A model generated the notes under the pieces. That model saw nothing but the letters and a program-made list of their open reading frames with translations. It was not told the origin of the DNA and searched no databases. The translations under genes and the position numbers were made by a program. DNA of 64,000 nt from Altibacter sp. (GTDB lineage Bacteria; Bacteroidota; Bacteroidia; Flavobacteriales; Flavobacteriaceae), in assembly GCF_019913785.1 (NCBI RefSeq), contig NZ_JAIOHK010000060.1, positions 1,826 to 65,825 of the forward strand, read 5' to 3'. Shown piece after piece: positions 39,629 to 56,860 of the stretch. Each line of letters opens with the position of its first letter. Within the stretch, counting starts at the first letter, position 1.

Positions 39629-41487
39629 TACGACTTTCAGATGCACAACTAGCCAAAAAAATTGACTTTATTGATCACTATATTAATTCATCCAATGCTG
39701 CGGACGGTTCTAAAGTAGATGCCAATGCCAATGTTACTTCAAAGAACATCGCTACCATGGAGGCAGAACTAAACAAGGATATTAATATTCAGGTGAACAG
39801 AGCATTAATTGCAAGAAAGATCGCATCTCTTTTTGGTGAGCATACGGCCAAAGAATACATTCGACAGATCGAAGAGCACGAGATCTATGTGCACGACGAA
39901 ACCTCTTTGAAGCCCTATTGTGTTTCTATAAGTATGTATCCGTTTCTTTTGGATGGACATACAAAAATGGGGGGCGAGAGTAGAGCTCCCAAACATTTGG
40001 AAAGCTTCTGTGGTGAGTTTGTCAATTTGGTGTTTGCAGTGAGTTCGCAGTTTGCAGGAGCCTTGGCTACTGTGGAATTTCTCCTGTATTTTGACCATTT
40101 TGCGCGCAAGGATTATGGAGATGCCTATCTCATCACTGACCAAAATATTATAGAAAATCATTTGCAGCATGTGGTCTATGCCATCAATCAGCCGGCTGCT
40201 GCTAGAGGCTACCAATCTGTTTTTTGGAATATTTCGCTATACGATGAGGCCTATTATAATAGTATGTTCGGTGAATTTGTTTTTCCGGATGGGGTATTGC
40301 CCAGTTGGGAGAGCGTTAAGAAGTTACAAGCTTTTTTTATGAAATGGTTCAATGAGGAACGTACCAAGGCTATACTAACATTTCCCGTGGTAACAGCCGC
40401 CATGTTGGTTAACGAAGGGAAACCTGTAGACACCGAATTCACCGAAATGTGCGCTCGAGAATTGAGTGAAGGCAATTCCTTTTTTATCTATCAATCGGAA
40501 AATGCCGATAGTTTGGCTTCCTGTTGTAGACTTCGAAACGAAATTAGTGATAATACCTTTAGTTATTCTTTAGGTGCAGGAGGTGTCGCCACCGGATCTA
40601 TCAATGTGATTACCCTCAATATGAACCGCTTGGTGCAAAAAGGAGCCGATGTAGTACAAGAAGTGAGAAAAATACATCAATATCAGGTGGCCTATCGAAA
40701 ATTAATTGAAGAATATGAAACTGCCGGTTTATTGCCGGTCTATGAGGCCGGATTTATATCTCTAAACAAACAATTCTTGACCATTGGAATCAACGGGATG
40801 GTTGAAGCGGCGGAAAGCTTAGGGATTGAAGTTAAAAACAACGACACTTATAAGAATTTCGTAAACAAATATTTAAAGGCAATTTATGATGAAAACAAAA
40901 AAGCGAAACAATCGTATGGGTATATGTTTAATACCGAATTTGTTCCGGCAGAAAATCTGGGAGTAAAAAATGCAAAGTGGGATCGCGAAGACGGCTTGTT
41001 TGTCCCTCGGGATTGTTATAATTCGTATTTCTATGTGGTGGAAGATGAGCAGACCAATTCCTTGGATAAAATTATCCTACACGGAAATGAAATTATCAAA
41101 TATCTGGATGGAGGATCGGCCTTACATCTCAATCTGGAAGAAACACCCAATAAAGAAGGGTTTATAAAGCTTATTCATGCAACTGCGGCAGCCGGATGTA
41201 ACTATTTTTGCTTTAATATTCGAATTACAATTTGTAATGACTGTAATCATATTGACAAGCGAACCCTATATCAATGTGGACATTGCGAATCGGTAAATGT
41301 TGATCACGCCACACGTGTGATCGGGTATTTAAAACGGGTTTCAAGTTTCAGTTCGGGGCGTCAAAACGAGCATCGATTACGCCACTACCACAAACAGAAA
41401 TACAGCAACAATCTTGTGAATCGAAGAGCTGAAGTTTTATTGAAAGCGAATGAAAAAACAATTCAAAAAATACCAACTTCTAACTAA
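39625..41487 (+). CDS. nrdD: anaerobic ribonucleoside-triphosphate reductase (class III)
   Basis: 620 aa. C-terminal Zn ribbon (CNDCNH..CGHCES) followed by the glycyl-radical motif region (ATRVIGYLKRV). Confidence 0.85.
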   Translation: MIRLSDAQLAKKIDFIDHYINSSNAADGSKVDANANVTSKNIATMEAELNKDINIQVNRALIARKIASLFGEHTAKEYIRQIEEHEIYVHDETSLKPYCVSISMYPFLLDGHTKMGGESRAPKHLESFCGEFVNLVFAVSSQFAGALATVEFLLYFDHFARKDYGDAYLITDQNIIENHLQHVVYAINQPAAARGYQSVFWNISLYDEAYYNSMFGEFVFPDGVLPSWESVKKLQAFFMKWFNEERTKAILTFPVVTAAMLVNEGKPVDTEFTEMCARELSEGNSFFIYQSENADSLASCCRLRNEISDNTFSYSLGAGGVATGSINVITLNMNRLVQKGADVVQEVRKIHQYQVAYRKLIEEYETAGLLPVYEAGFISLNKQFLTIGINGMVEAAESLGIEVKNNDTYKNFVNKYLKAIYDENKKAKQSYGYMFNTEFVPAENLGVKNAKWDREDGLFVPRDCYNSYFYVVEDEQTNSLDKIILHGNEIIKYLDGGSALHLNLEETPNKEGFIKLIHATAAAGCNYFCFNIRITICNDCNHIDKRTLYQCGHCESVNVDHATRVIGYLKRVSSFSSGRQNEHRLRHYHKQKYSNNLVNRRAEVLLKANEKTIQKIPTSN

Positions 41488-41556
41488 TTGCTAGTCTCAG
41501 TTGAGACATATTATTTCTTATTTTTTCCCAAGAAGTTATAATTCGTTAACTCAAAA

Positions 41557-41568
41557 TGACCATTGTCA
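41557..41568. promoter_or_regulatory. FNR/FixK-like box TGACCATTGTCA
   Basis: Centre is 86.5 nt upstream of norC. Confidence 0.6.
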
Positions 41569-41604
41569 TATTTTGATATTTAATAAAATCTGAATATTTG
41601 TAAT

Positions 41605-41624
41605 AAAGATAAAAAGGTCTTTTA
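41605..41624. promoter_or_regulatory. 20-mer AAAGATAAAAAGGTCTTTTA shared with the nrdG leader
   Basis: 19/20 identical to 39147..39166. Lies 25 nt upstream of the norC start and downstream of box 41557..41568. Confidence 0.4.
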
Positions 41625-41648
41625 ATATTAATTAACCAATCTATTTCT

Positions 41649-42098
41649 ATGTTATCAAAAAAACAGGCCCGAGCCTTCTTTCTCGGAGGAACATTAGTCA
41701 CTTTTTTAGTGTTCATAGGACTGACCATCTTCTCATTTAGCAAGGGGCAAGATCAAACCAATTACGAGGGTATTACCGAACAAGTTGTTCGAGGAAAGCA
41801 AATTTGGGAAGCCAACAATTGTATGGGATGTCATACTATTTTAGGCGAAGGCGCATATTATGCACCCGAGTTGACCAAAGTAATGGAGCGCAGAGGAGAA
41901 GGATATGTTAAAGCAGTCCTTATGACACCAAACGCATGGGCTCCTAACGGCCGTAAAATGGTGGCCTATGGTTTCTCGGAAGAGGAAGCCATGGACGTAA
42001 TTGCCTTTTTCGAATGGATAGGCGGTATCGATCTCAACGGTTTCGATCGAGTGGTATCACCGCTTGCAAAAGATGAAAAATCAATAGATAACAACTAA
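41649..42098 (+). CDS. norC: nitric oxide reductase small subunit (membrane-anchored cytochrome c)
   Basis: N-terminal TM anchor, CMGCH haem motif, and position directly upstream of norB. Confidence 0.85.
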   Translation: MLSKKQARAFFLGGTLVTFLVFIGLTIFSFSKGQDQTNYEGITEQVVRGKQIWEANNCMGCHTILGEGAYYAPELTKVMERRGEGYVKAVLMTPNAWAPNGRKMVAYGFSEEEAMDVIAFFEWIGGIDLNGFDRVVSPLAKDEKSIDNN

Positions 42099-42108
42099 AC
42101 TAACTACC

Positions 42109-43449
42109 ATGAAATACAAATCACAAAAAGTAGCATATTGGTTTTTTGCCTTATCGATGCTATTGCTCATTTTACAACTTACTTATGGATTCATCATGGG
42201 TTTTGCCAGAATTGGCATGGATGGCTTACACGATTTTATCCCCTTTAATACGGCCAGAGCGGTCCATACTAATCTATTGGTCGTTTGGCTATTATCCGGG
42301 TTTATGGGGGCTGCCTATTACATTATCCCCGAAGAGGCGCAGCGTGAGCTGGTTAGTGTAAAATTAGCATATGTTCAGCTTATATCTCTAGCTTTGGTAG
42401 GTGTTGCTGCTATTGTTGGCTACCACTTCAATTGGTGGGAAGGGCGGAAATTTTTAGAAATCCCTAGACAACTGGATTACTTGGTAGTAGCTAATGTCTT
42501 GCTATTTCTGGGGCTCATATTAACCACCTTGTTTAAGGGAAAACGAAAAACAACGACCGCCCTGGTGCTTTCTATGGGCTTGCTTTTTGCGGCCTTGTTA
42601 TATATACCGGGAATGCTGCCTTTCGATAGTCAGGTAACCGATTCATTCTTCCGCTGGTGGGTGGTGCACCTATGGGTTGAAGGCGTATGGGAATTGATTA
42701 TGGGAGGTATTCTGGCCTTCCTGCTAATCAAACTCACGGGAGTCGATAGAGAAGTCATTGAAAAATGGTTGTATGTAATCGTTGGTCTTACCTTTCTTTC
42801 AGGAATTTTAGGAACGGGACACCACTATTATTACATAGGAGTCAATAAAATTTGGCTTGTTGTTGGAGGTATTTTCTCGGCTCTAGAGCCGCTAGCCTTC
42901 TTGGCGATGGCTCTGTTTGCTGTAAATATGTATCGAAAAGGAGAAAAGAAACACCCCAATAAAATTGCTTTGTTCTGGACATTGGGATCTGCAATCGTAT
43001 CGTTTGTGGGAGCAGGATTATTGGGGTTTGCGCATACCTTACCACAAACCAACCTTTATACACACGGAACCTTGGTAACAGCTATGCATGGTCACCTTGC
43101 TTTTTGGGGGGCTTATGCCATGATTGTACTGGCTATTATAAGTTATTCATTACCTAATATGACCGGTAGAAAGCTTTACGACGGAGTTCGGGGTCGAATT
43201 GCCTTCTGGACCGCAAATATAGGAATGATAGGAATGACAGTAGCCTTTGGTGTAGCCGGCGTAGCGCAGGTATACCTAGAACGCAAGTTTAAAATGGACT
43301 TTATGGCTGTACAGGAAGAAATTAGCATTCATTTCGTGGTGCTTATTCTTTGTGCCTCATTGTTTACAATTGGAATTATTGCCTATATCATTGATTTTAT
43401 AAAACACGGCCGTCCAAACGACGAGGCTTTAGAAAAGATTGAAACTTAA
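42109..43449 (+). CDS. norB: nitric oxide reductase large subunit (cNOR NorB)
   Basis: 12 TM. Canonical ligands are all visible: AVHTN (helix II His), WWVVHLWVEG (FeB His and Glu), GTGHHYY and AMHGHLAFWG. Confidence 0.9.
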   Translation: MKYKSQKVAYWFFALSMLLLILQLTYGFIMGFARIGMDGLHDFIPFNTARAVHTNLLVVWLLSGFMGAAYYIIPEEAQRELVSVKLAYVQLISLALVGVAAIVGYHFNWWEGRKFLEIPRQLDYLVVANVLLFLGLILTTLFKGKRKTTTALVLSMGLLFAALLYIPGMLPFDSQVTDSFFRWWVVHLWVEGVWELIMGGILAFLLIKLTGVDREVIEKWLYVIVGLTFLSGILGTGHHYYYIGVNKIWLVVGGIFSALEPLAFLAMALFAVNMYRKGEKKHPNKIALFWTLGSAIVSFVGAGLLGFAHTLPQTNLYTHGTLVTAMHGHLAFWGAYAMIVLAIISYSLPNMTGRKLYDGVRGRIAFWTANIGMIGMTVAFGVAGVAQVYLERKFKMDFMAVQEEISIHFVVLILCASLFTIGIIAYIIDFIKHGRPNDEALEKIET

Positions 43450-49136: not shown

Positions 49137-49148
49137 TGATAAAAATCA
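49137..49148. promoter_or_regulatory. FNR/FixK-like box TGATAAAAATCA
   Basis: Centre is 57.5 nt upstream of the minus-strand ADP-forming acetyl-CoA synthetase start (49085). Confidence 0.6.
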
Positions 49149-49192: not shown

Positions 49193-49204
49193 TGATAAAT
49201 GTCA
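49193..49204. promoter_or_regulatory. FNR/FixK-like box TGATAAATGTCA
   Basis: Centre is 60.5 nt upstream of ATG 49259, the start of the NorC-like cytochrome gene. Confidence 0.6.
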
Positions 49205-49258
49205 TATTTGGAATTTGGCTATTTCTCTACTTTTAAAGCCCGATTACAGCTACTAAAG

Positions 49259-49690
49259 ATGCCGACCGATACTAAAAAGTACATTGTTATTATTGCAATA
49301 TTAATTGCACTGTTTTTAGTGTACAATTATATTATTTATACCAATGAAGGATATACTGCAAAGGTTGAGTTATCTCCAATGGCGATGGAAGGGCAGCTAT
49401 TATGGCAAAAAAACAATTGCTGGTCCTGTCATCAATTGTATGGCCTGGGAGGCTATTTGGGACCGGATCTTACCAATGTGTATTCTCACCCAGATAAGGG
49501 ACCGGTATATATTAATGCCTTTTTAAATAGTGGGGTAAAGACGATGCCCCAATTTCATTTTAATGAGTCAGAAAAAGAAGCCATCATCGAATATTTACGC
49601 ATAATCGATAAAACTGGATATTATCCCATTTTTGATGCTAGTATTGAGCCTTCGGGGTGGGTAAACATCAAGTATAAATATGAAGACTAA
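49259..49690 (+). CDS. NorC-like membrane-anchored monohaem cytochrome c
   Basis: TM anchor. CWSCHQLYGLGGYLGPDLTNV parallels NorC CMGCHTILGEGAYYAPELTKV. Start moved to ATG 49259, because the ORF-track ATG 49199 lies inside box 49193..49204. Confidence 0.7.
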   Translation: MPTDTKKYIVIIAILIALFLVYNYIIYTNEGYTAKVELSPMAMEGQLLWQKNNCWSCHQLYGLGGYLGPDLTNVYSHPDKGPVYINAFLNSGVKTMPQFHFNESEKEAIIEYLRIIDKTGYYPIFDASIEPSGWVNIKYKYED

Positions 49691-51005
49691 ACTTCCACTG
49701 TACTTTTTAGCTTTTGCCCTTATATCCTTGTTACTTGGAATCACTTTCGGTTTGTGTGCCTCCCTACAATATGTTTTTCCCGAATTTCTAAAAGAATACA
49801 TCCCCTTTTCAAAATTACGCCCTTTTCATGTAACCTCTGTAATTTCTTGGATTATACTTAGTGCTACAGGAAGTATTTACTTTTTTTTGGTGTATGTGGA
49901 GCGATTGAAGCTCTACTCAGACCGACTTTTAAAAGCACATTTTTGGATCTTTGCGTTAACGGGCTTGGCCATTTATATTTCGTATCTGGTAGGTTATACA
50001 GAAGGCCGAGAGTATTTTGCATTCGGTCCTGTCATCATGATTCCTATTCTATTGGGTTGGGTGCTGTTTGGGATTAACTATTTTAAAACACTTCGGAAAG
50101 CGGTTTCGGGATGGCCGGTATATTACTGGATGTGGGGTACGGGTATAGTTTTTATGATCTATCACCTCACCGAAGCTCATGTATGGGTTTTTGAATATTT
50201 CAGAGAGAATTTTATTAGGGATATGTCGGTGCAGTGGAAATCGTATGGCTCCTTTACCGGATCCTGGAATATGTTGGTATATGGAATTTCCATCTACGTG
50301 ATGTCTAAAATAAAGGGAGACCAGAAAATGGCGAAGAGTAAGACCGTCTTCTTTTTTTATTTTTTAGGACTGACCAATTTAATGTTTGGGTGGGCACATC
50401 ATACCTACTTTTTACCCATCCAACCGTGGATTCGCTATGTGGCCTATGCGGTAAGTATGACCGAATGGATTGTTTTGGCGTCTATCATTTATAATTGGAA
50501 ACGATCCTTACCAAAGGTTAAGCTCGAAAATCATCCAATGGCAACCCGGTTTATGATGTCTGCCGATGTGTGGATTTTATTGAACCTAATTTTGGCAATT
50601 CTATTTTCCATTCCGGCCATCAATTTCTTTACACATGGCACTCATATTACCGTGGCACATTCTATGGGAACAACCATCGGTATTAATACAACGATCTTAT
50701 TTTCGGCCCTTCTTTTTATATTGGGAAAGCTGAATCCCACATTCAACACCAATCAGTTTTCTTTGCGAAGAGGCCTGCAATTATTTAATATTACGCTTTT
50801 CTTTTTTTGGTGTTCCCTATTGACAGCAGGAATTAAAAAAAGCTATTGGATGTATTTTTCGAAAAAAGGCCTATTTTCTGAAATGCAGGATGCGATGATG
50901 ACAGTCTATATCTTAATTTTTGTTTTTGGGACAGGGCTTGTCATTGCTCTGTGCATGATCTCATTCCCAATTTTGAAGGAATTTTTGAGGAAGATAAAGC
51001 GCTAA
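49680..51005 (+). CDS. divergent haem-copper-oxidase/NorB-like subunit I protein with non-canonical ligand set
   Basis: 441 aa, 12 TM. Retains the helix II His (RPFHVTS), GWAHHTYF and THGTHITVAH. The helix VI His/Glu position reads Gly/Gly, and the HxH motif reads HSM. Confidence 0.65.
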   Translation: MKTKLPLYFLAFALISLLLGITFGLCASLQYVFPEFLKEYIPFSKLRPFHVTSVISWIILSATGSIYFFLVYVERLKLYSDRLLKAHFWIFALTGLAIYISYLVGYTEGREYFAFGPVIMIPILLGWVLFGINYFKTLRKAVSGWPVYYWMWGTGIVFMIYHLTEAHVWVFEYFRENFIRDMSVQWKSYGSFTGSWNMLVYGISIYVMSKIKGDQKMAKSKTVFFFYFLGLTNLMFGWAHHTYFLPIQPWIRYVAYAVSMTEWIVLASIIYNWKRSLPKVKLENHPMATRFMMSADVWILLNLILAILFSIPAINFFTHGTHITVAHSMGTTIGINTTILFSALLFILGKLNPTFNTNQFSLRRGLQLFNITLFFFWCSLLTAGIKKSYWMYFSKKGLFSEMQDAMMTVYILIFVFGTGLVIALCMISFPILKEFLRKIKR

Positions 51006-51014
51006 CTAAAACGA

Positions 51015-51461
51015 TCAAATTTCAAGCTCCTTTAGCGTAAGATACGTTCCTTTTTCAAGGGATTCGTCTGCATATTGCCCGATGGTTTTATCTCGGAAAT
51101 TTTCAAGTATTTGTTTCTTAAATGGTGACACGATTGCATGTGCCGGACATGGATTTACATCATTACACTCGGATAGGCCTAAAAAACACTGATTGAATTT
51201 TTCACCTCCGTCAATACATTTTATGATATCCCAAAGTGATTTCTTTCGGTTTTTTGCGCTTAAATAAAACCCTCCATGCGGACCTTTGGCAGATGAGACT
51301 AGCTTGTTAGTGGTTAATTGTTGTAATAATTTGGCTAAAAAAGACTGTGGGGTTTCTAGATCTTCTGCAATGACCTTCACACTTATTTTGTGATCTTCAG
51401 AACTATTTGTAGCCAAATAGAGGATGGATCGTATGGCATATTTAGATGCATTTGATAACAT
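51015..51461 (-). CDS. Rrf2-family transcriptional regulator (NsrR/IscR-like, three-Cys cluster motif)
   Basis: wHTH N-terminus (SNASKYAIRSILYLA). Cys triad CFLGLSECNDVNPC has Cx6Cx5C spacing. Confidence 0.8.
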   Translation of the reverse strand: MLSNASKYAIRSILYLATNSSEDHKISVKVIAEDLETPQSFLAKLLQQLTTNKLVSSAKGPHGGFYLSAKNRKKSLWDIIKCIDGGEKFNQCFLGLSECNDVNPCPAHAIVSPFKKQILENFRDKTIGQYADESLEKGTYLTLKELEI

Positions 51462-51573: not shown

Positions 51574-51585
51574 TGATTTTTATCA
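51574..51585. promoter_or_regulatory. FNR/FixK-like box TGATTTTTATCA
   Basis: Centre is 67.5 nt upstream of nadA ATG 51647. Confidence 0.6.
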
Positions 51586-51646
51586 TATATTTCACCTGTA
51601 AATCTATTTAATTTTGCGGTTTATAGATTCTTAATCGATTTTGATA

Positions 51647-52573
51647 ATGAGTTTGGTAGATGATATATTACAGCTGAAAAAGGAGAAGAACGCAGTTATC
51701 CTCGCGCATTATTATCAGCAACCCGAAATTCAAGAGATAGCCGATTATGTGGGAGACAGTTTAGGGTTGTCCCAAAAAGCAGCTGAAACTGATGCTGATC
51801 TCATTGTCTTTGCAGGAGTGCATTTCATGGCAGAAACCGCAAAAATCCTAAATCCTTCAAAAAAAGTTGTACTCCCCGACCTGAATGCGGGTTGTTCCTT
51901 GGCAGATTCATGCCCGCCAAAAGCATTTTCAGAATTTATAAATGCACATCCCCATCATGTAGTGATCACATATATTAATTGCTCCGCAGAGATCAAAGCG
52001 ATGAGTGATATAGTTTGTACTTCTTCCAATGCCTTGAAAATTGTAAATTCAATTCCGAAAGAGGTACCCATTATTTTCGCACCCGATAAGAACTTAGGAA
52101 AATATATTCAGAAAGAAGCCGGTAGGGAATTGGTATTGTGGGACGGTTCGTGTATAGTCCATGAAGCGTTTTCCATTGAAAAATTACTCAGCTTGTACAA
52201 AGAACATCCCGGTGCGAAGATTATAGCACATCCCGAATCTGAAACCCATATCCTCGATACAGCAACCTATATAGGATCCACCGCAGGAATGATCAATTAT
52301 GTGAAGGAACATCCTTCTGAAAAATTTATCGTCGCGACCGAAGCCGGTATTCTTCATAAAATGCAGCAGGAAGTTCCTAATGCAGTGTTAATTCCCGCCC
52401 CTGCCGAAGAAGACAATACCTGTGCCTGCAGTGAATGTGCCTTCATGAAGCTAAACACTCTTCAAAAATTATACGACTGCTTATTGCATGAAACACCTCA
52501 AATTGAGGTACCTGAGGAGGTCAGAAAACGCGCCTTGCTTCCTATTGAACGTATGCTTGCCTTATCAAAATAA
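51647..52573 (+). CDS. nadA: quinolinate synthase
   Basis: [14 protein letters not shown] and the Cys ligand contexts (NAGCS, YINCSAE, CSEC region) are typical of NadA. Confidence 0.85.
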
Positions 52574-52574
52574 G

Positions 52575-54164
52575 ATGGTAGAAACTAATTTTCTTGTTAT
52601 AGGCTCTGGAGTGGCGGGATTGACGTTGGCAGTAAAATTGGCTTCAACTTTTCCAAATAAAAGGGTAACCATAGTTACCAAATCTAACGAATCTGAGTCC
52701 AATACCAAATACGCTCAAGGTGGTGTAGCTGCTGTCTTTAATGCAGAAGAGGACTCCTTTCAGAAACATATAATCGATACGCTTCAGGCGGGCGATGGCC
52801 TGTGTGATAAGAAAGTGGTGGAAATGGTGATAAAAGAAGGCCCCAAACGATTGTACGAGCTTATGGAATGGGGTGCGAGATTCGATAGGGATACTTCTGG
52901 AAAAGTCGCTTTGGGAAGAGAAGGAGGGCATTCCGAAGACCGGGTGCTACATCATAAAGACATGACCGGTTTCGAAATTGAACGTGCCCTGCTTGAAAAA
53001 GCACACCAACTTTCGAATGTGATACTTCTGCCGCATCATTTTGCCGTAGACCTTATAACCGAACACCATCTGTTGGATGCAAAAACAGATCGTATTTCCT
53101 GTTATGGCGCCTATGTGATGGATCAGATCTCAGGAAACATAATAACGATTAAATCGGATACCACAACCCTGGCGGCCGGTGGTTTGGGACAGGTGTATGG
53201 GCATACCACAAATCCTGCGGTAGCCACTGGCGATGGAATCGCTATGGCATATCGGGCAAAGGCTCGCATCAAGGATATGGAATTTATACAATTTCATCCA
53301 ACGGCATTGTATGATGGCAAAGAAGGTGCTTCCTTCTTAATCTCGGAGGCGGTTCGTGGTTTTGGAGCTTTGCTTCGAAATGGGAAAGGCGAACGATTTA
53401 TGTTGCGGTATGACCCCCGGGCCGAATTGGCATCGCGAGATATTGTTTCGCGAGCTATCGATTCTGAATTAAAAAAATTAGGAGATACCTGTGTGTATTT
53501 GGATTGCACGCATCTGAATATAGCTGAGTTTGAACATGAGTTCCCAACGATCTCCGAAACCTGCAAAAGTAAAGGAATAATACTTTCTAAAGATTGGATT
53601 CCGGTAGTACCGGCAGCGCATTATGTATGTGGCGGTGTTGAAGTTGATGTACACGGCAGGACTTCTGTATTAAATTTATTCGCTTGCGGGGAATGTTCGA
53701 GAACAGGTCTGCACGGTGCTAACCGACTCGCATCGAACTCACTTTTAGAGGCCTTAGTGTATGCGCATAATATCTTTGAATACCACTGTAAGTATTCGTT
53801 GTCTTCATCGACCATTAGCATTCCATATTGGAATGATGAGGGCGTTGTCTTCTTGGAAGAACATAAAATACTTCAAAAAAAGATAAAAAAATTACAAAAA
53901 TTAATGCGGCGATATGTCGGTATCCTGAGAAGTAATGCAGAATTACAAAAAGCATCAACAGAGCTGGATAAACTATATGTCGAAACCGAAAGGCTTTATC
54001 AAAAACACAAATTAAACACCTCCCTTTGTGAACTGCGAAATATGGTAAACGTAGCACACATGATTATTGATCAATCACTGAGTCGTACTGAAAATAGGGG
54101 AGGATATTTTAATATGGATAATTTAATAAAAAAGACAAAATCTTATGGAAAAATTGATCACTGA
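52575..54164 (+). CDS. nadB: L-aspartate oxidase
   Basis: FAD motif VIGSGVAGL, plus QGGVAA, HPTAL and GLHGANRLASNSLLE. Start set to ATG 52575 (MVETNF), 2 nt after the nadA stop. Confidence 0.85.
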   Translation: MVETNFLVIGSGVAGLTLAVKLASTFPNKRVTIVTKSNESESNTKYAQGGVAAVFNAEEDSFQKHIIDTLQAGDGLCDKKVVEMVIKEGPKRLYELMEWGARFDRDTSGKVALGREGGHSEDRVLHHKDMTGFEIERALLEKAHQLSNVILLPHHFAVDLITEHHLLDAKTDRISCYGAYVMDQISGNIITIKSDTTTLAAGGLGQVYGHTTNPAVATGDGIAMAYRAKARIKDMEFIQFHPTALYDGKEGASFLISEAVRGFGALLRNGKGERFMLRYDPRAELASRDIVSRAIDSELKKLGDTCVYLDCTHLNIAEFEHEFPTISETCKSKGIILSKDWIPVVPAAHYVCGGVEVDVHGRTSVLNLFACGECSRTGLHGANRLASNSLLEALVYAHNIFEYHCKYSLSSSTISIPYWNDEGVVFLEEHKILQKKIKKLQKLMRRYVGILRSNAELQKASTELDKLYVETERLYQKHKLNTSLCELRNMVNVAHMIIDQSLSRTENRGGYFNMDNLIKKTKSYGKIDH

Positions 54165-54762
54165 AGCTGTAAAGGCTGGAATGACCTATGCTGAATATAA
54201 CTCACTTTTTAAGCGATTGGTTGAGGCCGGCCGCACAACAGGCGAATCGACAACCGAAAAGATTACATACACAAAATTGAATTTTAGTAGAAGTAAACGT
54301 TTGGACAAAACCTTTTTCCTGACCGATATTCAAGCCAAGCAATTTAGGAGCCTGACACAAAAACAAACCTGGCTTGTTATTACAGAGCCATGGTGTGGTG
54401 ATGGAGCACAAACGCTCCCCTTATTGCACCGAATAGCAGAAACATCTCCACACATAGATTTGAAAATAGTACTTCGAGACGATTATCTCGATCTTATGGA
54501 CGCATTTTTAACCAATGGATCTCGATCTATTCCGAAGCTAATTATTTTGGACGAACATATGGAAGTGTTGGGGGACTGGGGACCGCGCTCAAATGCCGCA
54601 ACACAAATGGTAACCGATTACAAGACGACGCATGGAAAAATTGATGCAGCGTTTAAAGAAGAATTACAGCGCTGGTATAACCAAGACCGAGGACAGGCTA
54701 TAATTAAAGAACTACTGGCATTGATTCCTGTTATTGCAAAAGGCGCACTAAAAGAGGTCTAA
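54145..54762 (+). CDS. thioredoxin-fold family protein
   Basis: 205 aa. The WCGDG motif lies in a thioredoxin-like context. Overlaps the nadB end by 20 nt. Confidence 0.55.
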   Translation: MEKLITEAVKAGMTYAEYNSLFKRLVEAGRTTGESTTEKITYTKLNFSRSKRLDKTFFLTDIQAKQFRSLTQKQTWLVITEPWCGDGAQTLPLLHRIAETSPHIDLKIVLRDDYLDLMDAFLTNGSRSIPKLIILDEHMEVLGDWGPRSNAATQMVTDYKTTHGKIDAAFKEELQRWYNQDRGQAIIKELLALIPVIAKGALKEV

Positions 54763-55964
54763 CGATTTTTACTCGAAAATTGCGCCATAAAAACCCAGCC
54801 TATGGCCAAAACAAGGGATATACTGGCGAAAGTCAGAAAGTAGTGATAATTCGCGCTAAGTGACCCACCTATCCATACGAGGATACCCTTGTAGAAGATA
54901 AGTGTTTCGGTAGCTAAAAAACCAAAAAGGTATAAGGGAATACTCAGTTTCGGTATATAGATTAGTTTAGCTGAATTCAGAAAGGCTAATAATGCGACAC
55001 TCACAACTCCTAAAAATGTCCAATGGAGGTAGCTGATGACCAGATCGATATTGGCTGAAATAGATTGGGCTGCTTCAGGAAAGGCACCAATCAATTGCGC
55101 GATCAATTTTACCAGTAAAAAGATACCGGAAGCAATTAAGAGCCTTGTTATGGGTAAAGAAAGTTGTTCCTTTAACCGCTGGAACGATGTATATATTTTT
55201 CGGAATAATATTCCGAAGGCTGCCAGTTGTAAAACGCCTCCTACGCCTGCCAATATATAAAAGACAGGATGAGGTTTCATCCACAATACCGATAGGAAAA
55301 AGCTGAGTAGTACCCCCCAATTCAGCAATAGAAAAAAAACACGGAACGACTTTTTTGAAAGCGAGAGCTTATACCTCTCTAAGACTACAAATAAAAAACC
55401 ACAAAGCGCAACTATAAACCAGCCGTTATATTGAAAGTGTAAAAAGAAATAGATAGCGTTTCGGTACCAGGGAGAACTGCTTCCCAGAGTCGTCATAATA
55501 CCTCCCAAAGCCCAAGGGCCTATACTAGAAAGAATCATAAACCAGAGGGCAACACGAATTAATTTGAAGGATTGCCGCTGCTTTTGATCGGCATCTATTT
55601 GCTTCAGAAAAAAATAAGTAAACCAATAAGACGCCAGTAAGAAAAGGGTTGAAAACAGGATTGAGAAAAATGCATAGCCGGTAAAAGGAAAGGAAACCAA
55701 CATACCTACTATGGTAAGTTGTGTACTCCAAAAAATACGTCTGTATTTCTTAGCGATGGGTTTATCTTTTACATAGTGAAAGTAGAGCAGGGTCGTGATA
55801 GCCGTGTATACCCATCCTAATAGGGCGATATGTGAGTGGGTATGCACAACAAACCGATAATTGGCCGGAATATCCACCACTTGGAATAACCTTAGTACAA
55901 GCCCTAATACGGCTATGATTAAGAAATAGCCAAGCGCAATTTGTACGTGCTTTTTTAAATCCAT
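54759..55964 (-). CDS. 12-TM membrane protein with intramembrane His motifs (possibly NnrS-like)
   Basis: 401 aa. HTHSHIALLGW (TM2), FLHFQYNGW (TM6), YLHWTFLG (TM10). Family not securely recognised. Confidence 0.3.
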   Translation of the reverse strand: MDLKKHVQIALGYFLIIAVLGLVLRLFQVVDIPANYRFVVHTHSHIALLGWVYTAITTLLYFHYVKDKPIAKKYRRIFWSTQLTIVGMLVSFPFTGYAFFSILFSTLFLLASYWFTYFFLKQIDADQKQRQSFKLIRVALWFMILSSIGPWALGGIMTTLGSSSPWYRNAIYFFLHFQYNGWFIVALCGFLFVVLERYKLSLSKKSFRVFFLLLNWGVLLSFFLSVLWMKPHPVFYILAGVGGVLQLAAFGILFRKIYTSFQRLKEQLSLPITRLLIASGIFLLVKLIAQLIGAFPEAAQSISANIDLVISYLHWTFLGVVSVALLAFLNSAKLIYIPKLSIPLYLFGFLATETLIFYKGILVWIGGSLSANYHYFLTFASISLVLAIGWVFMAQFSSKNR

Positions 55965-56137: not shown

Positions 56138-56860
56138 CTAGTTTTTCAACTTTTCCTCAAGGCGTAGGGCTTTTGGATGTAGAATGTTGTTTTCTAGGTG
56201 AATGTGTTTGTGCAGATCTTGCTCAAATTCATCCAGCTTATCGTACAAGGCTCTAAATGTATTACAAGCTCCTTCCGGTGGGGTGTAATTATTTGTGAGA
56301 CGGGCAATTTCTTTAAAAATATCGCCAACTTCTTCGTGTTCACTTTCCATCATATGAATAGGGTTCTGAACGGATCCAAAGTGTGCATTGGGTGGGGTGC
56401 TATTTTCTTTTTCAGCCTTTACCAACTGCTTGATATAAGGGAATAGTACTAATTCCTCCTTTTTCATATGTCCGGCCAATTCCTTGGCAGCTAATTGAAA
56501 TAGTCTATCTATTTCTACAACCTCGGTATAATGGTGCCCATGCACTTTGGCTACCTTGGCAGCGTACAAAAGCAGCATCGGCGTGCTTTCTTCTACATAA
56601 TTGTGATGTACATTTTCGATATAGTCGATCAAAAAAGGAAGCGTCCATCGATTGTAATCGTTATTGTCTTCAGCAGACACATTCACTTCTTGTAGTTCTT
56701 GCAATAATGTATTGTAATCCAATCCTTTTTTCTCACAAACCTTTTCGATGGAAACACCACCGCCACAACAAAAGTCAATGTTGTATTTTTTAAATACATG
56801 AGAAGCTTTAATGTTTTCGGTAACTACCTGTGCTACGGTTTTATCTTTTGTAATATTCAT
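56138..56860 (-). CDS. ric: iron-sulfur cluster repair di-iron protein (RIC/ScdA/YtfE family)
   Basis: ScdA_N motif DFCCGG and hemerythrin-like His/Glu motifs (HH..VEE, EE..LFP, H..LEN). ATG 56878 is an alternative start. Confidence 0.8.
   Translation of the reverse strand: MNITKDKTVAQVVTENIKASHVFKKYNIDFCCGGGVSIEKVCEKKGLDYNTLLQELQEVNVSAEDNNDYNRWTLPFLIDYIENVHHNYVEESTPMLLLYAAKVAKVHGHHYTEVVEIDRLFQLAAKELAGHMKKEELVLFPYIKQLVKAEKENSTPPNAHFGSVQNPIHMMESEHEEVGDIFKEIARLTNNYTPPEGACNTFRALYDKLDEFEQDLHKHIHLENNILHPKALRLEEKLKN

Follow-up and report, generated by a model that had tools for sequence, protein, structure and literature searches.

A conserved NorC/NorB-like gene pair with a rebuilt distal site in Altibacter, possibly a second NO-scavenging reductase beside cNOR

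The 64,000-nucleotide stretch of an Altibacter sp. contig analysed here (the window) encodes a canonical nitric oxide reductase, norCB (41649..43449), together with a second, divergent pair of NorC- and NorB-like genes. The pair raises the question of which haem-copper oxidase (HCO) family it belongs to and what it reduces. Gene inventories are the basis on which NO and N2O turnover in soils and oceans is estimated, and in hundreds of genomes relatives of the larger protein carry the annotation "NorB" or "cbb3 subunit I". Since the family lacks residues considered essential for NorB or cbb3, it may be miscounted in such inventories. It also offers a natural experiment on what an HCO active site needs, with a helix-VI His replaced by Gly, a Lys one turn earlier, and a putative His/Met-ligated low-spin haem.

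The first gene (49199..49690, forward strand) was called as an ORF for a membrane-anchored mono-haem cytochrome c of 163 residues that resembles NorC and carries a CWSCH motif. Its start had been put at 49193, which is 6 nt too early; Met21, at 49259, is an alternative start. The protein matched Pfam Cytochrome_CBB3 and Cytochrom_C, its best PDB match was NorC of P. aeruginosa (3o0r_C, E = 6.9e-13), and it was 31% identical to the window's NorC. The Met of an MPQF motif is the likely sixth haem ligand. The second gene (49680..51005, forward strand) overlaps the first by 11 nt and encodes a 441-residue homologue of HCO subunit I, scoring 108.7 bits against Pfam COX1 (PF00115; gathering cut-off 34.8), which makes it a member of the HCO superfamily. 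Its AF2 model (pLDDT 92.9) consisted of 12 long helices, and Foldseek gave TM-scores of 0.87–0.89 to cNOR NorB and cbb3 CcoN, and 0.70–0.76 to ba3. A NorC-type mono-haem cytochrome c thus lies immediately upstream of the HCO gene, as in the NorCB complex. The two genes adjoin each other in 75/80 loci, where this and all later counts out of 80 refer to the best 80 loci among at least 552 species genomes with a relative. The stop/start overlap is usually 11 nt across orthologous loci, and in family members of ~800 residues CcoO-like and other c-type cytochrome domains are fused to the HCO domain.

Relatives of the HCO protein in those ≥552 species genomes came from Flavobacteriales, Planctomycetota and Acidobacteriota, with 117 clusters at 50% identity matching at E ≤ 1e-30; Bacteroidota dominated the best 80 genome matches. 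In a neighbour-joining tree whose cNOR references comprised 2 PDB and 9 flavobacterial sequences, the family, cNOR and cbb3 were each separately monophyletic in 100/100 bootstraps. A position inside cNOR or cbb3 was looked for, and the protein fell in neither. The family profile matched only cNOR (114 and 90 bits), cbb3 (83) and qNOR (70) in the PDB, with no ba3 match at E ≤ 1e-3, and the protein was ~20% identical to the window's NorB by BLASTP. Together with the models and the NorC-like partner, the alignments bear out, family-wide, the view of a second divergent NorC/NorB-like pair. The HCO gene gave dN/dS values of 0.079 and 0.068 against relatives of 98% and 91% identity, and the cytochrome gene 0.063; the pair is under purifying selection, real and functional. 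A pseudogene or decaying paralogue is ruled out by dN/dS of about 0.07 and by conservation across phyla. Aequorivita, Flavobacterium, Tenacibaculum and Altibacter are culturable genera that carry the family, so the function of this sister family of cNOR is open to direct test.

The metal ligands were located in four ways: phmmer against 3o0r_B, BLASTP against the window's NorB, the family profile against PDB sequences, and L-INS-i alignment to cNOR and cbb3 sequences. Of the canonical six His, four are present (His50, His240, His241 and His327), and rigorous alignment did not restore the other two. His50, in the helix II motif RPFHVTS, corresponds to His60 of P. aeruginosa NorB (PaNorB) and is a predicted low-spin haem ligand; the other predicted ligand of that haem, at the second position of the HxH motif, is Met329, exactly at PaNorB His349. 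The first His of the motif is kept as His327 (PaNorB His347), assigned to the high-spin haem. The HH pair is conserved as His240/His241 (PaNorB His258/His259) in the metal-B site. In helix VI, the absence of His and Glu described in the original prediction stood: residues 178–212 contained no His in the alignments, Glu211, which cNOR alone has as an insertion of one residue, is absent here, and Glu215 is replaced by Asn197. The exact site did not stand. With the conserved Asp181 and the Gln-Trp motif as anchors, cNOR His207 aligned with Gly190 and not with Tyr189, a position that is variable in the family. This one-residue shift was the only disagreement with the four independent alignments, which rule out a shifted hand alignment. 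One helical turn before Gly190, at i−3, lies an invariant Lys187, the remaining residue assigned to the metal-B site. Glu262 retains cNOR Glu280, and Glu111, in a GREY motif, marks the Ca site. No Tyr was found at the cbb3 Tyr251 position, either with the family profile or in the L-INS-i alignment. Metal B would therefore be left with just two His, and His/Met ligation of the low-spin haem is probable, as had been predicted.

Both the His/Met substitution and the helix-VI change are family-wide and no local accident. Met329 was kept in 120/120 close homologues, in 117/117 middle-clade homologues and in 75 of 81 representatives. Lys187 and Gly190 were present in all 120 close homologues; in the middle clade Gly190 was found in 117/117 and Lys187 in 115, the other two having Arg. 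Among the 81 representatives, 63–64 carried the Lys187/Gly190 combination and 16 of the others, forming a far clade, carried His187 and Asp190. This co-variation between clades suggests that the two positions act together.

The pair lies in an island of the order nos-nrdDG-norCBQD-norE-(pair)-nadAB-ytfE-senC-nirV-nirK, which includes a complete nosZ-nosLDFY cluster. In 54/80 Flavobacteriales loci, at least one of nor, ytfE, nirK, nosZ, nrdD or M401 (described below) lay 10 kb or less from the pair. Within the same distance, ytfE was found in 42/80, norQ/norD in 22–23/80 and nosZ in 6/80, and at several loci norQ-norD-cox3-cox4 immediately precedes the pair. YtfE/RIC is a nitrosative-stress repair protein, and the gene in the window (56138..56860, reverse strand) encodes a di-iron protein of this type with ScdA_N and hemerythrin domains. 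In Planctomycetota, one locus (L110) has the order ACIII-cytochrome c-HCO-ytfE, where ACIII is Alternative Complex III and ytfE is co-directional, 10 nt downstream of the HCO gene; another has ACIII-cytochrome c-HCO with a hemerythrin as neighbour, and the pair also occurs close to NarG. Genes for molybdoenzymes of the xanthine dehydrogenase family are co-directional with the pair at three loci (L036/L037 and L117). Far-clade members lie in unrelated contexts in metagenome loci, which are uninformative on function.

A third HCO-like protein belongs to the same islands. M401 (54759..55964, reverse strand) is a membrane protein of 401 residues that gave no Pfam, NCBIfam or PDB sequence match; its AF2 model, built with database homologues (pLDDT 90.8), showed a cryptic HCO subunit-I fold, with Foldseek TM-scores of 0.72–0.78 to cbb3 CcoN and cNOR NorB (E about 1e-6). 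His41, His43, His45, His176 and His314 are invariant in it, the HH pair is absent, and hhalign against the HCO family gave a probability of 30.6%. In 29/80 loci it is no more than 10 kb from the pair, and at several Flavobacterium loci it lies just upstream, in the order M401-fasciclin-cytochrome c-HCO. We also observed that a Cys-rich protein of ~600 residues, with no Pfam, NCBIfam or PDB sequence match, often flanks the pair.

Upstream of the operon lies an FNR/CRP-type palindrome, TGATAAAAATCA (49137..49148). The window contains 11 copies of the motif TGAT-N4-ATCA where 1.83 would be expected, a count reached in 0/100 shuffles. All 11 sites are upstream of genes; the downstream genes that could be assigned are Usp genes, PAS-HK/RR-Crp, the nos cluster, nadAB and a Cu-ATPase gene. 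In 30 of 69 orthologous loci this box recurs ~66 nt before the cytochrome gene; TGAY..RTCA variants stand at other loci, and the box was missing where the pair directly follows nor genes. A Bacteroidetes-type −7 element was convincing after four other boxes and approximate only at the cytochrome c promoter (TAACTCTG, offset 21.5). Enrichment in the window and conserved position confirm the FNR-like box that had been proposed for the pair.

Convergent with the HCO gene, and divergent from nadA of nadAB, is a gene for a regulator of the Rrf2 family (51015..51461, reverse strand; 148 residues; Pfam Rrf2, 87 bits). The Cx6Cx5C motif reported for it was recovered as C92-x6-C99-x5-C105, three clustered Cys as in Fe-S-binding Rrf2 regulators. 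The label "NsrR-like" found no support: the protein scored 26 bits with the NsrR model (NF008240, cut-off 182), lower than with the IscR (54.9), SUF-regulator and RirA (45.7) models. The IscR, RirA and NsrR scores were all under the respective cut-offs, and among NCBIfam models only the Rrf2 superfamily cut-off was passed. The gene is near the pair in just 31/80 loci, and a regulatory link to the pair, whose genes are simply convergent with it, is putative.

Taken together, the gene contexts, on the one hand nor/nos/nirK/ytfE/nrdDG islands and on the other ACIII operons, point to a terminal reductase fed by cytochrome c, most likely an NO scavenger. Our tentative reading, to which we give a probability of roughly 45%, is that the pair is a cytochrome-c-dependent, NO-scavenging terminal reductase with a rebuilt distal site, the second such enzyme beside cNOR. 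It would be a membrane-bound, two-subunit complex of a distinct HCO family on the C-family/cNOR branch. Electrons would pass from the cytochrome c pool, or in Planctomycetota directly from ACIII, to haem c of the NorC-like subunit and then to a low-spin haem b held by His50 and Met329 in place of two His, the potential of which should be raised by analogy with nNOR. From there they would reach haem b3, high-spin and held by His327, and Ca2+ at Glu111 would bridge both b haems as in cNOR and cbb3. The distal site retains His240 and His241 and has Gly190 and Lys187 instead of the helix-VI His and both cNOR glutamates. The Lys187 side chain could fill the room of the missing imidazole, either as a third metal ligand or, if the site is poor in metal, by donating protons as a cation. 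Low oxygen may turn on the operon, and with it nos, nadAB and Usp genes, through the FNR/CRP-type box.

Several points tell against NO as the substrate. The FeB ligands His207 and Glu211 are considered essential in cNOR, and the pair has equivalents of neither. A further NO reductase would be redundant, because cNOR, NosZ and NirK are already in the window. In some contexts, the ACIII operons and molybdoenzyme neighbours fit a general sink resembling a terminal oxidase, the contexts of far-clade members are unrelated, and the sole published label of what is probably the same family is "N2O reductase", itself speculative.

It is unlikely that the pair instead carries out other N-oxide chemistry, such as nitrite reduction or the handling of hydroxylamine or HNO, at a haem whose distal side offers two His and one Lys, or that it is a non-catalytic NO-binding or sensor subunit. 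A distal set of two His with Lys, Asn or Gln is unprecedented among characterised HCOs, within the same genomes the protein has diverged faster than NorB (52–74% against 84–95% identity), and M401, more degenerate still, shares its islands. Nevertheless, the electron-input chain of haem c, haem b and Ca site is strictly conserved, which, with dN/dS of about 0.07, is expected of a working redox enzyme. The window also has NirK already, and no alternative substrate in particular gained positive support.

A low-oxygen terminal oxidase or O2 scavenger, serving as a cbb3-like respiratory sink, appears improbable. Its appeal lies in the position of the pair at the end of ACIII operons, the usual place of caa3 or cbb3 oxidases, in the co-directional molybdenum hydroxylases, which require a respiratory sink, in the FNR-type box, and in cbb3 features such as LRPxH, DxxxQW, Glu165 and the CcoO/CcoP-like fusions. 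However, a Tyr-His cross-linked cofactor is needed for O2 reduction by HCOs according to the text of Murali et al. (PMC11214002), and the protein has neither a Tyr at the Tyr251 position nor a helix-VI His to which it could be linked. Only two His remain for CuB, and the association with NO-stress genes is more frequent.

Equally hard to favour is a membrane-bound, NosZ-independent N2O reductase, which we consider very doubtful. The article text of Murali et al. (2024) describes an uncharacterised HCO family, "N2O red", on the C-family branch near cNOR and without the active-site Tyr, and connects it with a Bacteroidota organism, Flexibacter canadensis; the speculation rests on a membrane N2O reductase activity of that organism that is insensitive to sulfide and acetylene (PMC11214002). 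Our family fits this description as a separate C-branch clade next to cNOR without the Tyr, its best 80 genome matches are mostly from Bacteroidota, its rebuilt distal site argues for chemistry other than that of cNOR, and the FNR-like box is common to the pair and the nos cluster. Against this, the window already holds a complete nos cluster, nosZ is far less frequent near the pair than ytfE or norQ/norD, and the sharing of an operon with ytfE in Planctomycetota speaks for NO. The proposal is given in that text without sequence-level or biochemical support (PMC11214002), and identity with the "N2O red" family is putative. A bolder version is a long shot: a lineage with a His2-Lys second metal site (His2-His/Asp in the sister clade), or with no metal there, catalysing a reaction unprecedented among characterised HCOs, for instance respiratory N2O reduction independent of NosZ and copper, and forming an undescribed N-oxide module with M401 and the ~600-residue Cys-rich protein.

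With regard to known systems, the family is widespread and probably already catalogued, as the "N2O red" of Murali et al., whose description it matches. No "N2O red" motifs or sequences were found in the available text of PMC11214002, of its bioRxiv version or of the FIND preprint; a later user of the Murali et al. HMMs gave nothing on this family, and the Solitalea literature nothing relevant. Membership in one of the proposed families eNOR, sNOR, gNOR or nNOR, which had been raised as a possibility, is ruled out, as is bNOR: these families are described as related to the B family, with a cupredoxin-type (CuA-homologous) subunit II (PMC11214002), while our protein has a NorC-like partner and affinity to the C family and cNOR. 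A His/Met low-spin haem is described for nNOR too, and one active-site His is Asp in gNOR, as at position 190 of the far clade (PMC11214002); these resemblances are convergent and do not reflect membership. NOD, the putative NO dismutase derived from qNOR, is described as a clade inside qNOR with fused subunits I and II (PMC11214002; bioRxiv 592808). Like our family, it is related to NORs and has an altered non-haem metal site, which in its case led to proposals of new chemistry, but the pair keeps a strictly conserved cytochrome-c electron input in a separate subunit; membership is ruled out by this separate cytochrome c, by the length of 441 residues and by qNOR being the weakest NOR match.

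The protein shares with cbb3 CcoN (3MK7) the fold (TM 0.87), LRPxH, (T/R)DxxxQW, the helix-V Glu, the lack of a Glu211 insertion, the fusions to CcoO/CcoP-like cytochromes in some members and the position downstream of ACIII in Planctomycetota. In contrast to cbb3, it lacks Tyr251 and the helix-VI CuB His, so that the set of three CuB His and Tyr is incomplete; its low-spin haem would be His/Met ligated, its partner is nearer NorC than CcoO, and TIGR00780 scored 41 bits against a cut-off of 583. From cNOR it differs in forming a separate clade, in the replacement of the FeB His by Gly, His349 by Met and Glu215 by Asn, in the absence of Glu211, so that only Glu280 of the three glutamates Glu211, Glu215 and Glu280 is kept, and in the Lys at i−3; no norQ/norD dedicated to the pair was seen in the loci. 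What unites it with cNOR is the two-subunit organisation with a membrane-anchored, NorC-like haem c, a 12-helix subunit I, the GRE(Y/F) Ca-site Glu, the THGT motif, the HH pair, the Glu280 equivalent, the shared lack of a cross-link Tyr, and a place in denitrification islands, at times in the same operon as cNOR itself.

The pair consisted of two overlapping genes on the (+) strand, one encoding a 163-residue c-type cytochrome with a CWSCH motif (49199..49690) and the other a 441-residue haem-copper oxidase (HCO) protein (49680..51005; 11-nt overlap). A 148-residue Rrf2 regulator was encoded on the (-) strand, convergent with the latter gene (51015..51461). The 441-residue protein matched Pfam COX1 with 108.7 bits and reached no curated NCBIfam cut-off (ccoN scored 41 bits vs. 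the cut-off of 583). Its AlphaFold2 model, calculated from a family alignment of 79 sequences, showed twelve long helices (pLDDT 92.9, pTM 0.93). The top structural matches were cNOR NorB (3o0r_B and 4xyd_A, TM 0.87-0.89) and cbb3 CcoN (3mk7, TM 0.87), and the B- and A-family oxidases were clearly poorer. The cytochrome is NorC-like in sequence: its best PDB match was P. aeruginosa NorC (E 6.9e-13), and the window's own NorC was 31% identical. These ORFs and matches confirmed the second, divergent NorC/NorB-like pair of the original prediction, whose interpretation was essentially right.

Four independent alignments (phmmer with 3o0r_B, BLASTP with the window NorB, the family profile with PDB sequences, and L-INS-i with cNOR and cbb3) agreed on the ligand positions. 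His50 corresponded to H60 of P. aeruginosa NorB, an axial ligand of the low-spin haem; His240 and His241 to the metal-B ligands H258 and H259; and His327 to H347, which binds the high-spin haem. Met329 occupied the position of H349, the other axial ligand of the low-spin haem, which predicts His/Met ligation of this haem. No histidine was present in helix VI (residues 178-212). This loss had been predicted correctly, but at Tyr189, a variable position in the family; with the conserved Asp181 and the Gln185-Trp186 motif common to cbb3 as anchors, the canonical metal-B His position is Gly190, one residue away. Glu211 of cNOR, a cNOR-specific one-residue insertion, was missing, and Asn197 was found at the Glu215 position. 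Glu280 was retained as Glu262, and the Ca-site Glu as Glu111 within the GREY motif. The alignments with cbb3 placed no Tyr of the 441-residue protein at the cross-link position. All these residues were present in the window's canonical NorB (aligned with cNOR and cbb3), so the contrast falls inside one genome.

When all 1.84 billion representative proteins were scanned, 536 relatives were returned (117 at E ≤ 1e-30), and at least 552 species-level genomes carried a family member. The best 80 of these genomes were all Flavobacteriales; the hosts of the middle clade were Planctomycetota and Acidobacteriota MAGs. Across 318 members, His50, His240, His241, His327 and Glu165 were essentially invariant. 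Met329 was kept in 120/120 close homologues, 117/117 middle-clade sequences and 75 of the 81 representatives. Lys187 and Gly190 always co-occurred in the near and middle clades, and the far clade had His187 and Asp190, together with Ala262 and His242. Since residues 187 and 190 (i-3 and i), one turn apart on the same face of helix VI, covary, Lys187 may take the space of the missing imidazole, with covariation as the main argument. The far clade (e.g. proteins P0221-P0270, loci L082-L104), a sister clade known from metagenomes, carried QWHGxD and HHHY motifs, the third His following the HH pair; Glu262 was replaced by Ala, Met329 and the NorC-like partner were still present, and the gene contexts were unrelated to denitrification.

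Neighbour-joining with 100 bootstraps recovered three monophyletic groups, cNOR, cbb3 and the present family, each with 100% support. The family had LRPxH, DxxxQW and the absence of the Glu211 insertion in common with cbb3, and GREY/F, THGT, Glu280 and the NorC-like partner in common with cNOR. In some members of ~ 800 residues, CcoO-like and additional c-type cytochrome domains were fused to the HCO domain. The HCO gene is under strong purifying selection, with dN/dS of 0.079 and 0.068 when compared with relatives sharing 98% and 91% identity, respectively; the value for the cytochrome gene was 0.063. Orthologues encoded in the same set of genomes (L001-L079) shared 52-74% identity with the divergent HCO and 84-95% with the window's NorB (42109..43449), which reflects either much faster evolution of the new family or recent nor exchange among Flavobacteriales.

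The palindrome TGATAAAAATCA was located upstream of the cytochrome gene (49137..49148). TGAT-N4-ATCA occurred 11 times in the window (93, 4906, 8217, 26575, 30212, 37695, 49137, 51574, 61106, 61265 and 63758), where chance predicts 1.83; none of the shuffles reached this count. All 11 boxes had A/T-rich spacers and lay upstream of genes, those placed being Usp genes, a PAS kinase/RR-Crp pair, the nos cluster, nadAB and the Cu-ATPase gene. Of 69 orthologous loci, 30 had the same box ~ 66 nt before the cytochrome gene and many others had variants of it differing by one base, and the predicted FNR-like box of the pair was thereby borne out. At four boxes, a Bacteroidetes-type TAnnTTTG element started 29.5 nt past the box centre, a spacing as expected for class II activation. 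Upstream of norC (41487..41649) we found TGACcattGTCA instead; in place of the TGAT-N4-ATCA box, the canonical nor operon has the palindrome aTGACcattGTCAt, which suggests a separate, possibly NO-responsive, regulator. Given these distinct signals, the pair seems to be part of an FNR/CRP-type, low-oxygen regulon and not to share the promoter signal of nor.

The Rrf2 protein has the three clustered Cys residues that had been noted, and its proposed role as an NsrR-like NO sensor for the pair was not supported: it scored below every equivalog cut-off, NsrR being the weakest match, and its gene is only convergent with the HCO gene. It diverges from nadAB, which has its own box at 51574, and the regulator may instead control these Fe-S-dependent NAD-synthesis genes.

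By gene content, the window is an island of denitrification and nitrosative-stress functions. In this order, it contains cytochrome c and fasciclin genes and nosZ-nosL-nosD-nosF-nosY, followed by an acetyl-CoA hydrolase gene, nrdG, nrdD, norC, norB, norQ, norD, and norE-like cox3 and cox4 genes, of which only cox3 is norE-like. The gene of an ADP-forming acyl-CoA synthetase (-), the pair and the Rrf2 gene (-) come next, then nadA, nadB and the gene of a thioredoxin-like protein. M401 (-), ytfE/RIC (-), senC (-), a nirV-like gene (-), a nirK-cytochrome c fusion (-) and the Cu-ATPase gene follow. Among 80 Flavobacteriales loci, the best 80 of the at least 552 genomes, the cytochrome gene adjoined the HCO gene in 75; recurrent neighbours were nadA (56), nadB (53), ytfE (42), Rrf2 (31), M401 (29), norQ (23) and norD (22). 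The most conserved neighbours, nadA and nadB (51641..54164), encode quinolinate synthase and L-aspartate oxidase. In several genomes, norQ-norD-cox3-cox4 led directly into the pair, which lacked its own promoter box. A Cys-rich protein of ~ 600 residues, absent from the window and without a Pfam, NCBIfam or PDB sequence match, was encoded in 26 of the 80 loci (e.g. L063:11337-13142 (+)), often right after the HCO gene and in its orientation.

M401, a 401-residue membrane protein (54759..55964 (-)), had no Pfam, NCBIfam or PDB sequence match either. According to its AF2 model (pLDDT 90.8; Foldseek TM 0.72-0.78 to cbb3 CcoN and cNOR NorB), it folds as HCO subunit I, which brings the island's proteins of this fold to three, M401 being a cryptic one. 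His41, His43, His45, His176 and His314 were invariant, and the HH pair was absent. Most of its 1699 homologues are named "hypothetical" and two UniRef entries "NnrS family"; several Flavobacterium loci had the order M401-fasciclin-cytochrome c-HCO.

The strict conservation of the electron-input chain (haem c, haem b, Ca site and high-spin haem) in the family, together with the selection, speaks for a functional reductase that depends on cytochrome c. The contexts recurring most often and across phyla were genes of NO production or NO damage (nor, nirK, ytfE, nrdDG, NarG). On two Planctomycetota metagenome contigs, operons for Alternative Complex III (ActABCDEF) ended with the pair; in L110 a ScdA/YtfE gene of the same orientation came 10 nt further downstream, and in L108 a hemerythrin gene was adjoining; in other Planctomycetota loci NarG lay a few genes away. 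Because of this recurrence, we tentatively favour, at a probability of roughly 0.45, an NO-scavenging reductase, in which the distal site would have been rebuilt. Some other chemistry, or a non-catalytic role, is unlikely. O2 reduction would suit the Alternative Complex III operons and a minority of loci, from two unrelated lineages, in which xanthine-dehydrogenase/CO-dehydrogenase-family molybdoenzyme genes are co-directional with the pair (downstream of HCO in L036/L037; upstream and overlapping the cytochrome gene in L117:3373-7186), hinting that a dehydrogenase module can use the pair as its electron sink; however, the Tyr-His cofactor is missing, and we regard this activity as improbable. 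N2O reduction is the least probable, as a full nos cluster co-occurs with the pair and the linkage of the pair to nosZ is weak. The contexts of some other loci were uninformative. The hosts are culturable, making the function directly testable and the family worth attention.

As described in the accessible text of Murali et al. 2024 (PMC11214002), eNOR, sNOR, gNOR and nNOR are B-family derivatives with cupredoxin-type partners, and we rejected membership of the pair in these families on that ground. We found no description of the Gly190/Lys187 and Met329 pattern in that text. The same authors briefly mention, without detail, a family on the C-family branch, "closely related to cNOR" and devoid of the active-site Tyr, labelled "N2O red"; the name reflects their speculation that it could be the N2O reductase of Flexibacter canadensis, a membrane-bound activity insensitive to sulfide and acetylene. 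Compared by description, "N2O red" fits the present family in phylogenetic position, partner and dominant phylum, and the two are probably the same, which would make our gene a new member of a catalogued, biochemically uncharacterised family. The pair is a real member of a widespread, uncharacterised HCO family that has probably already been named.
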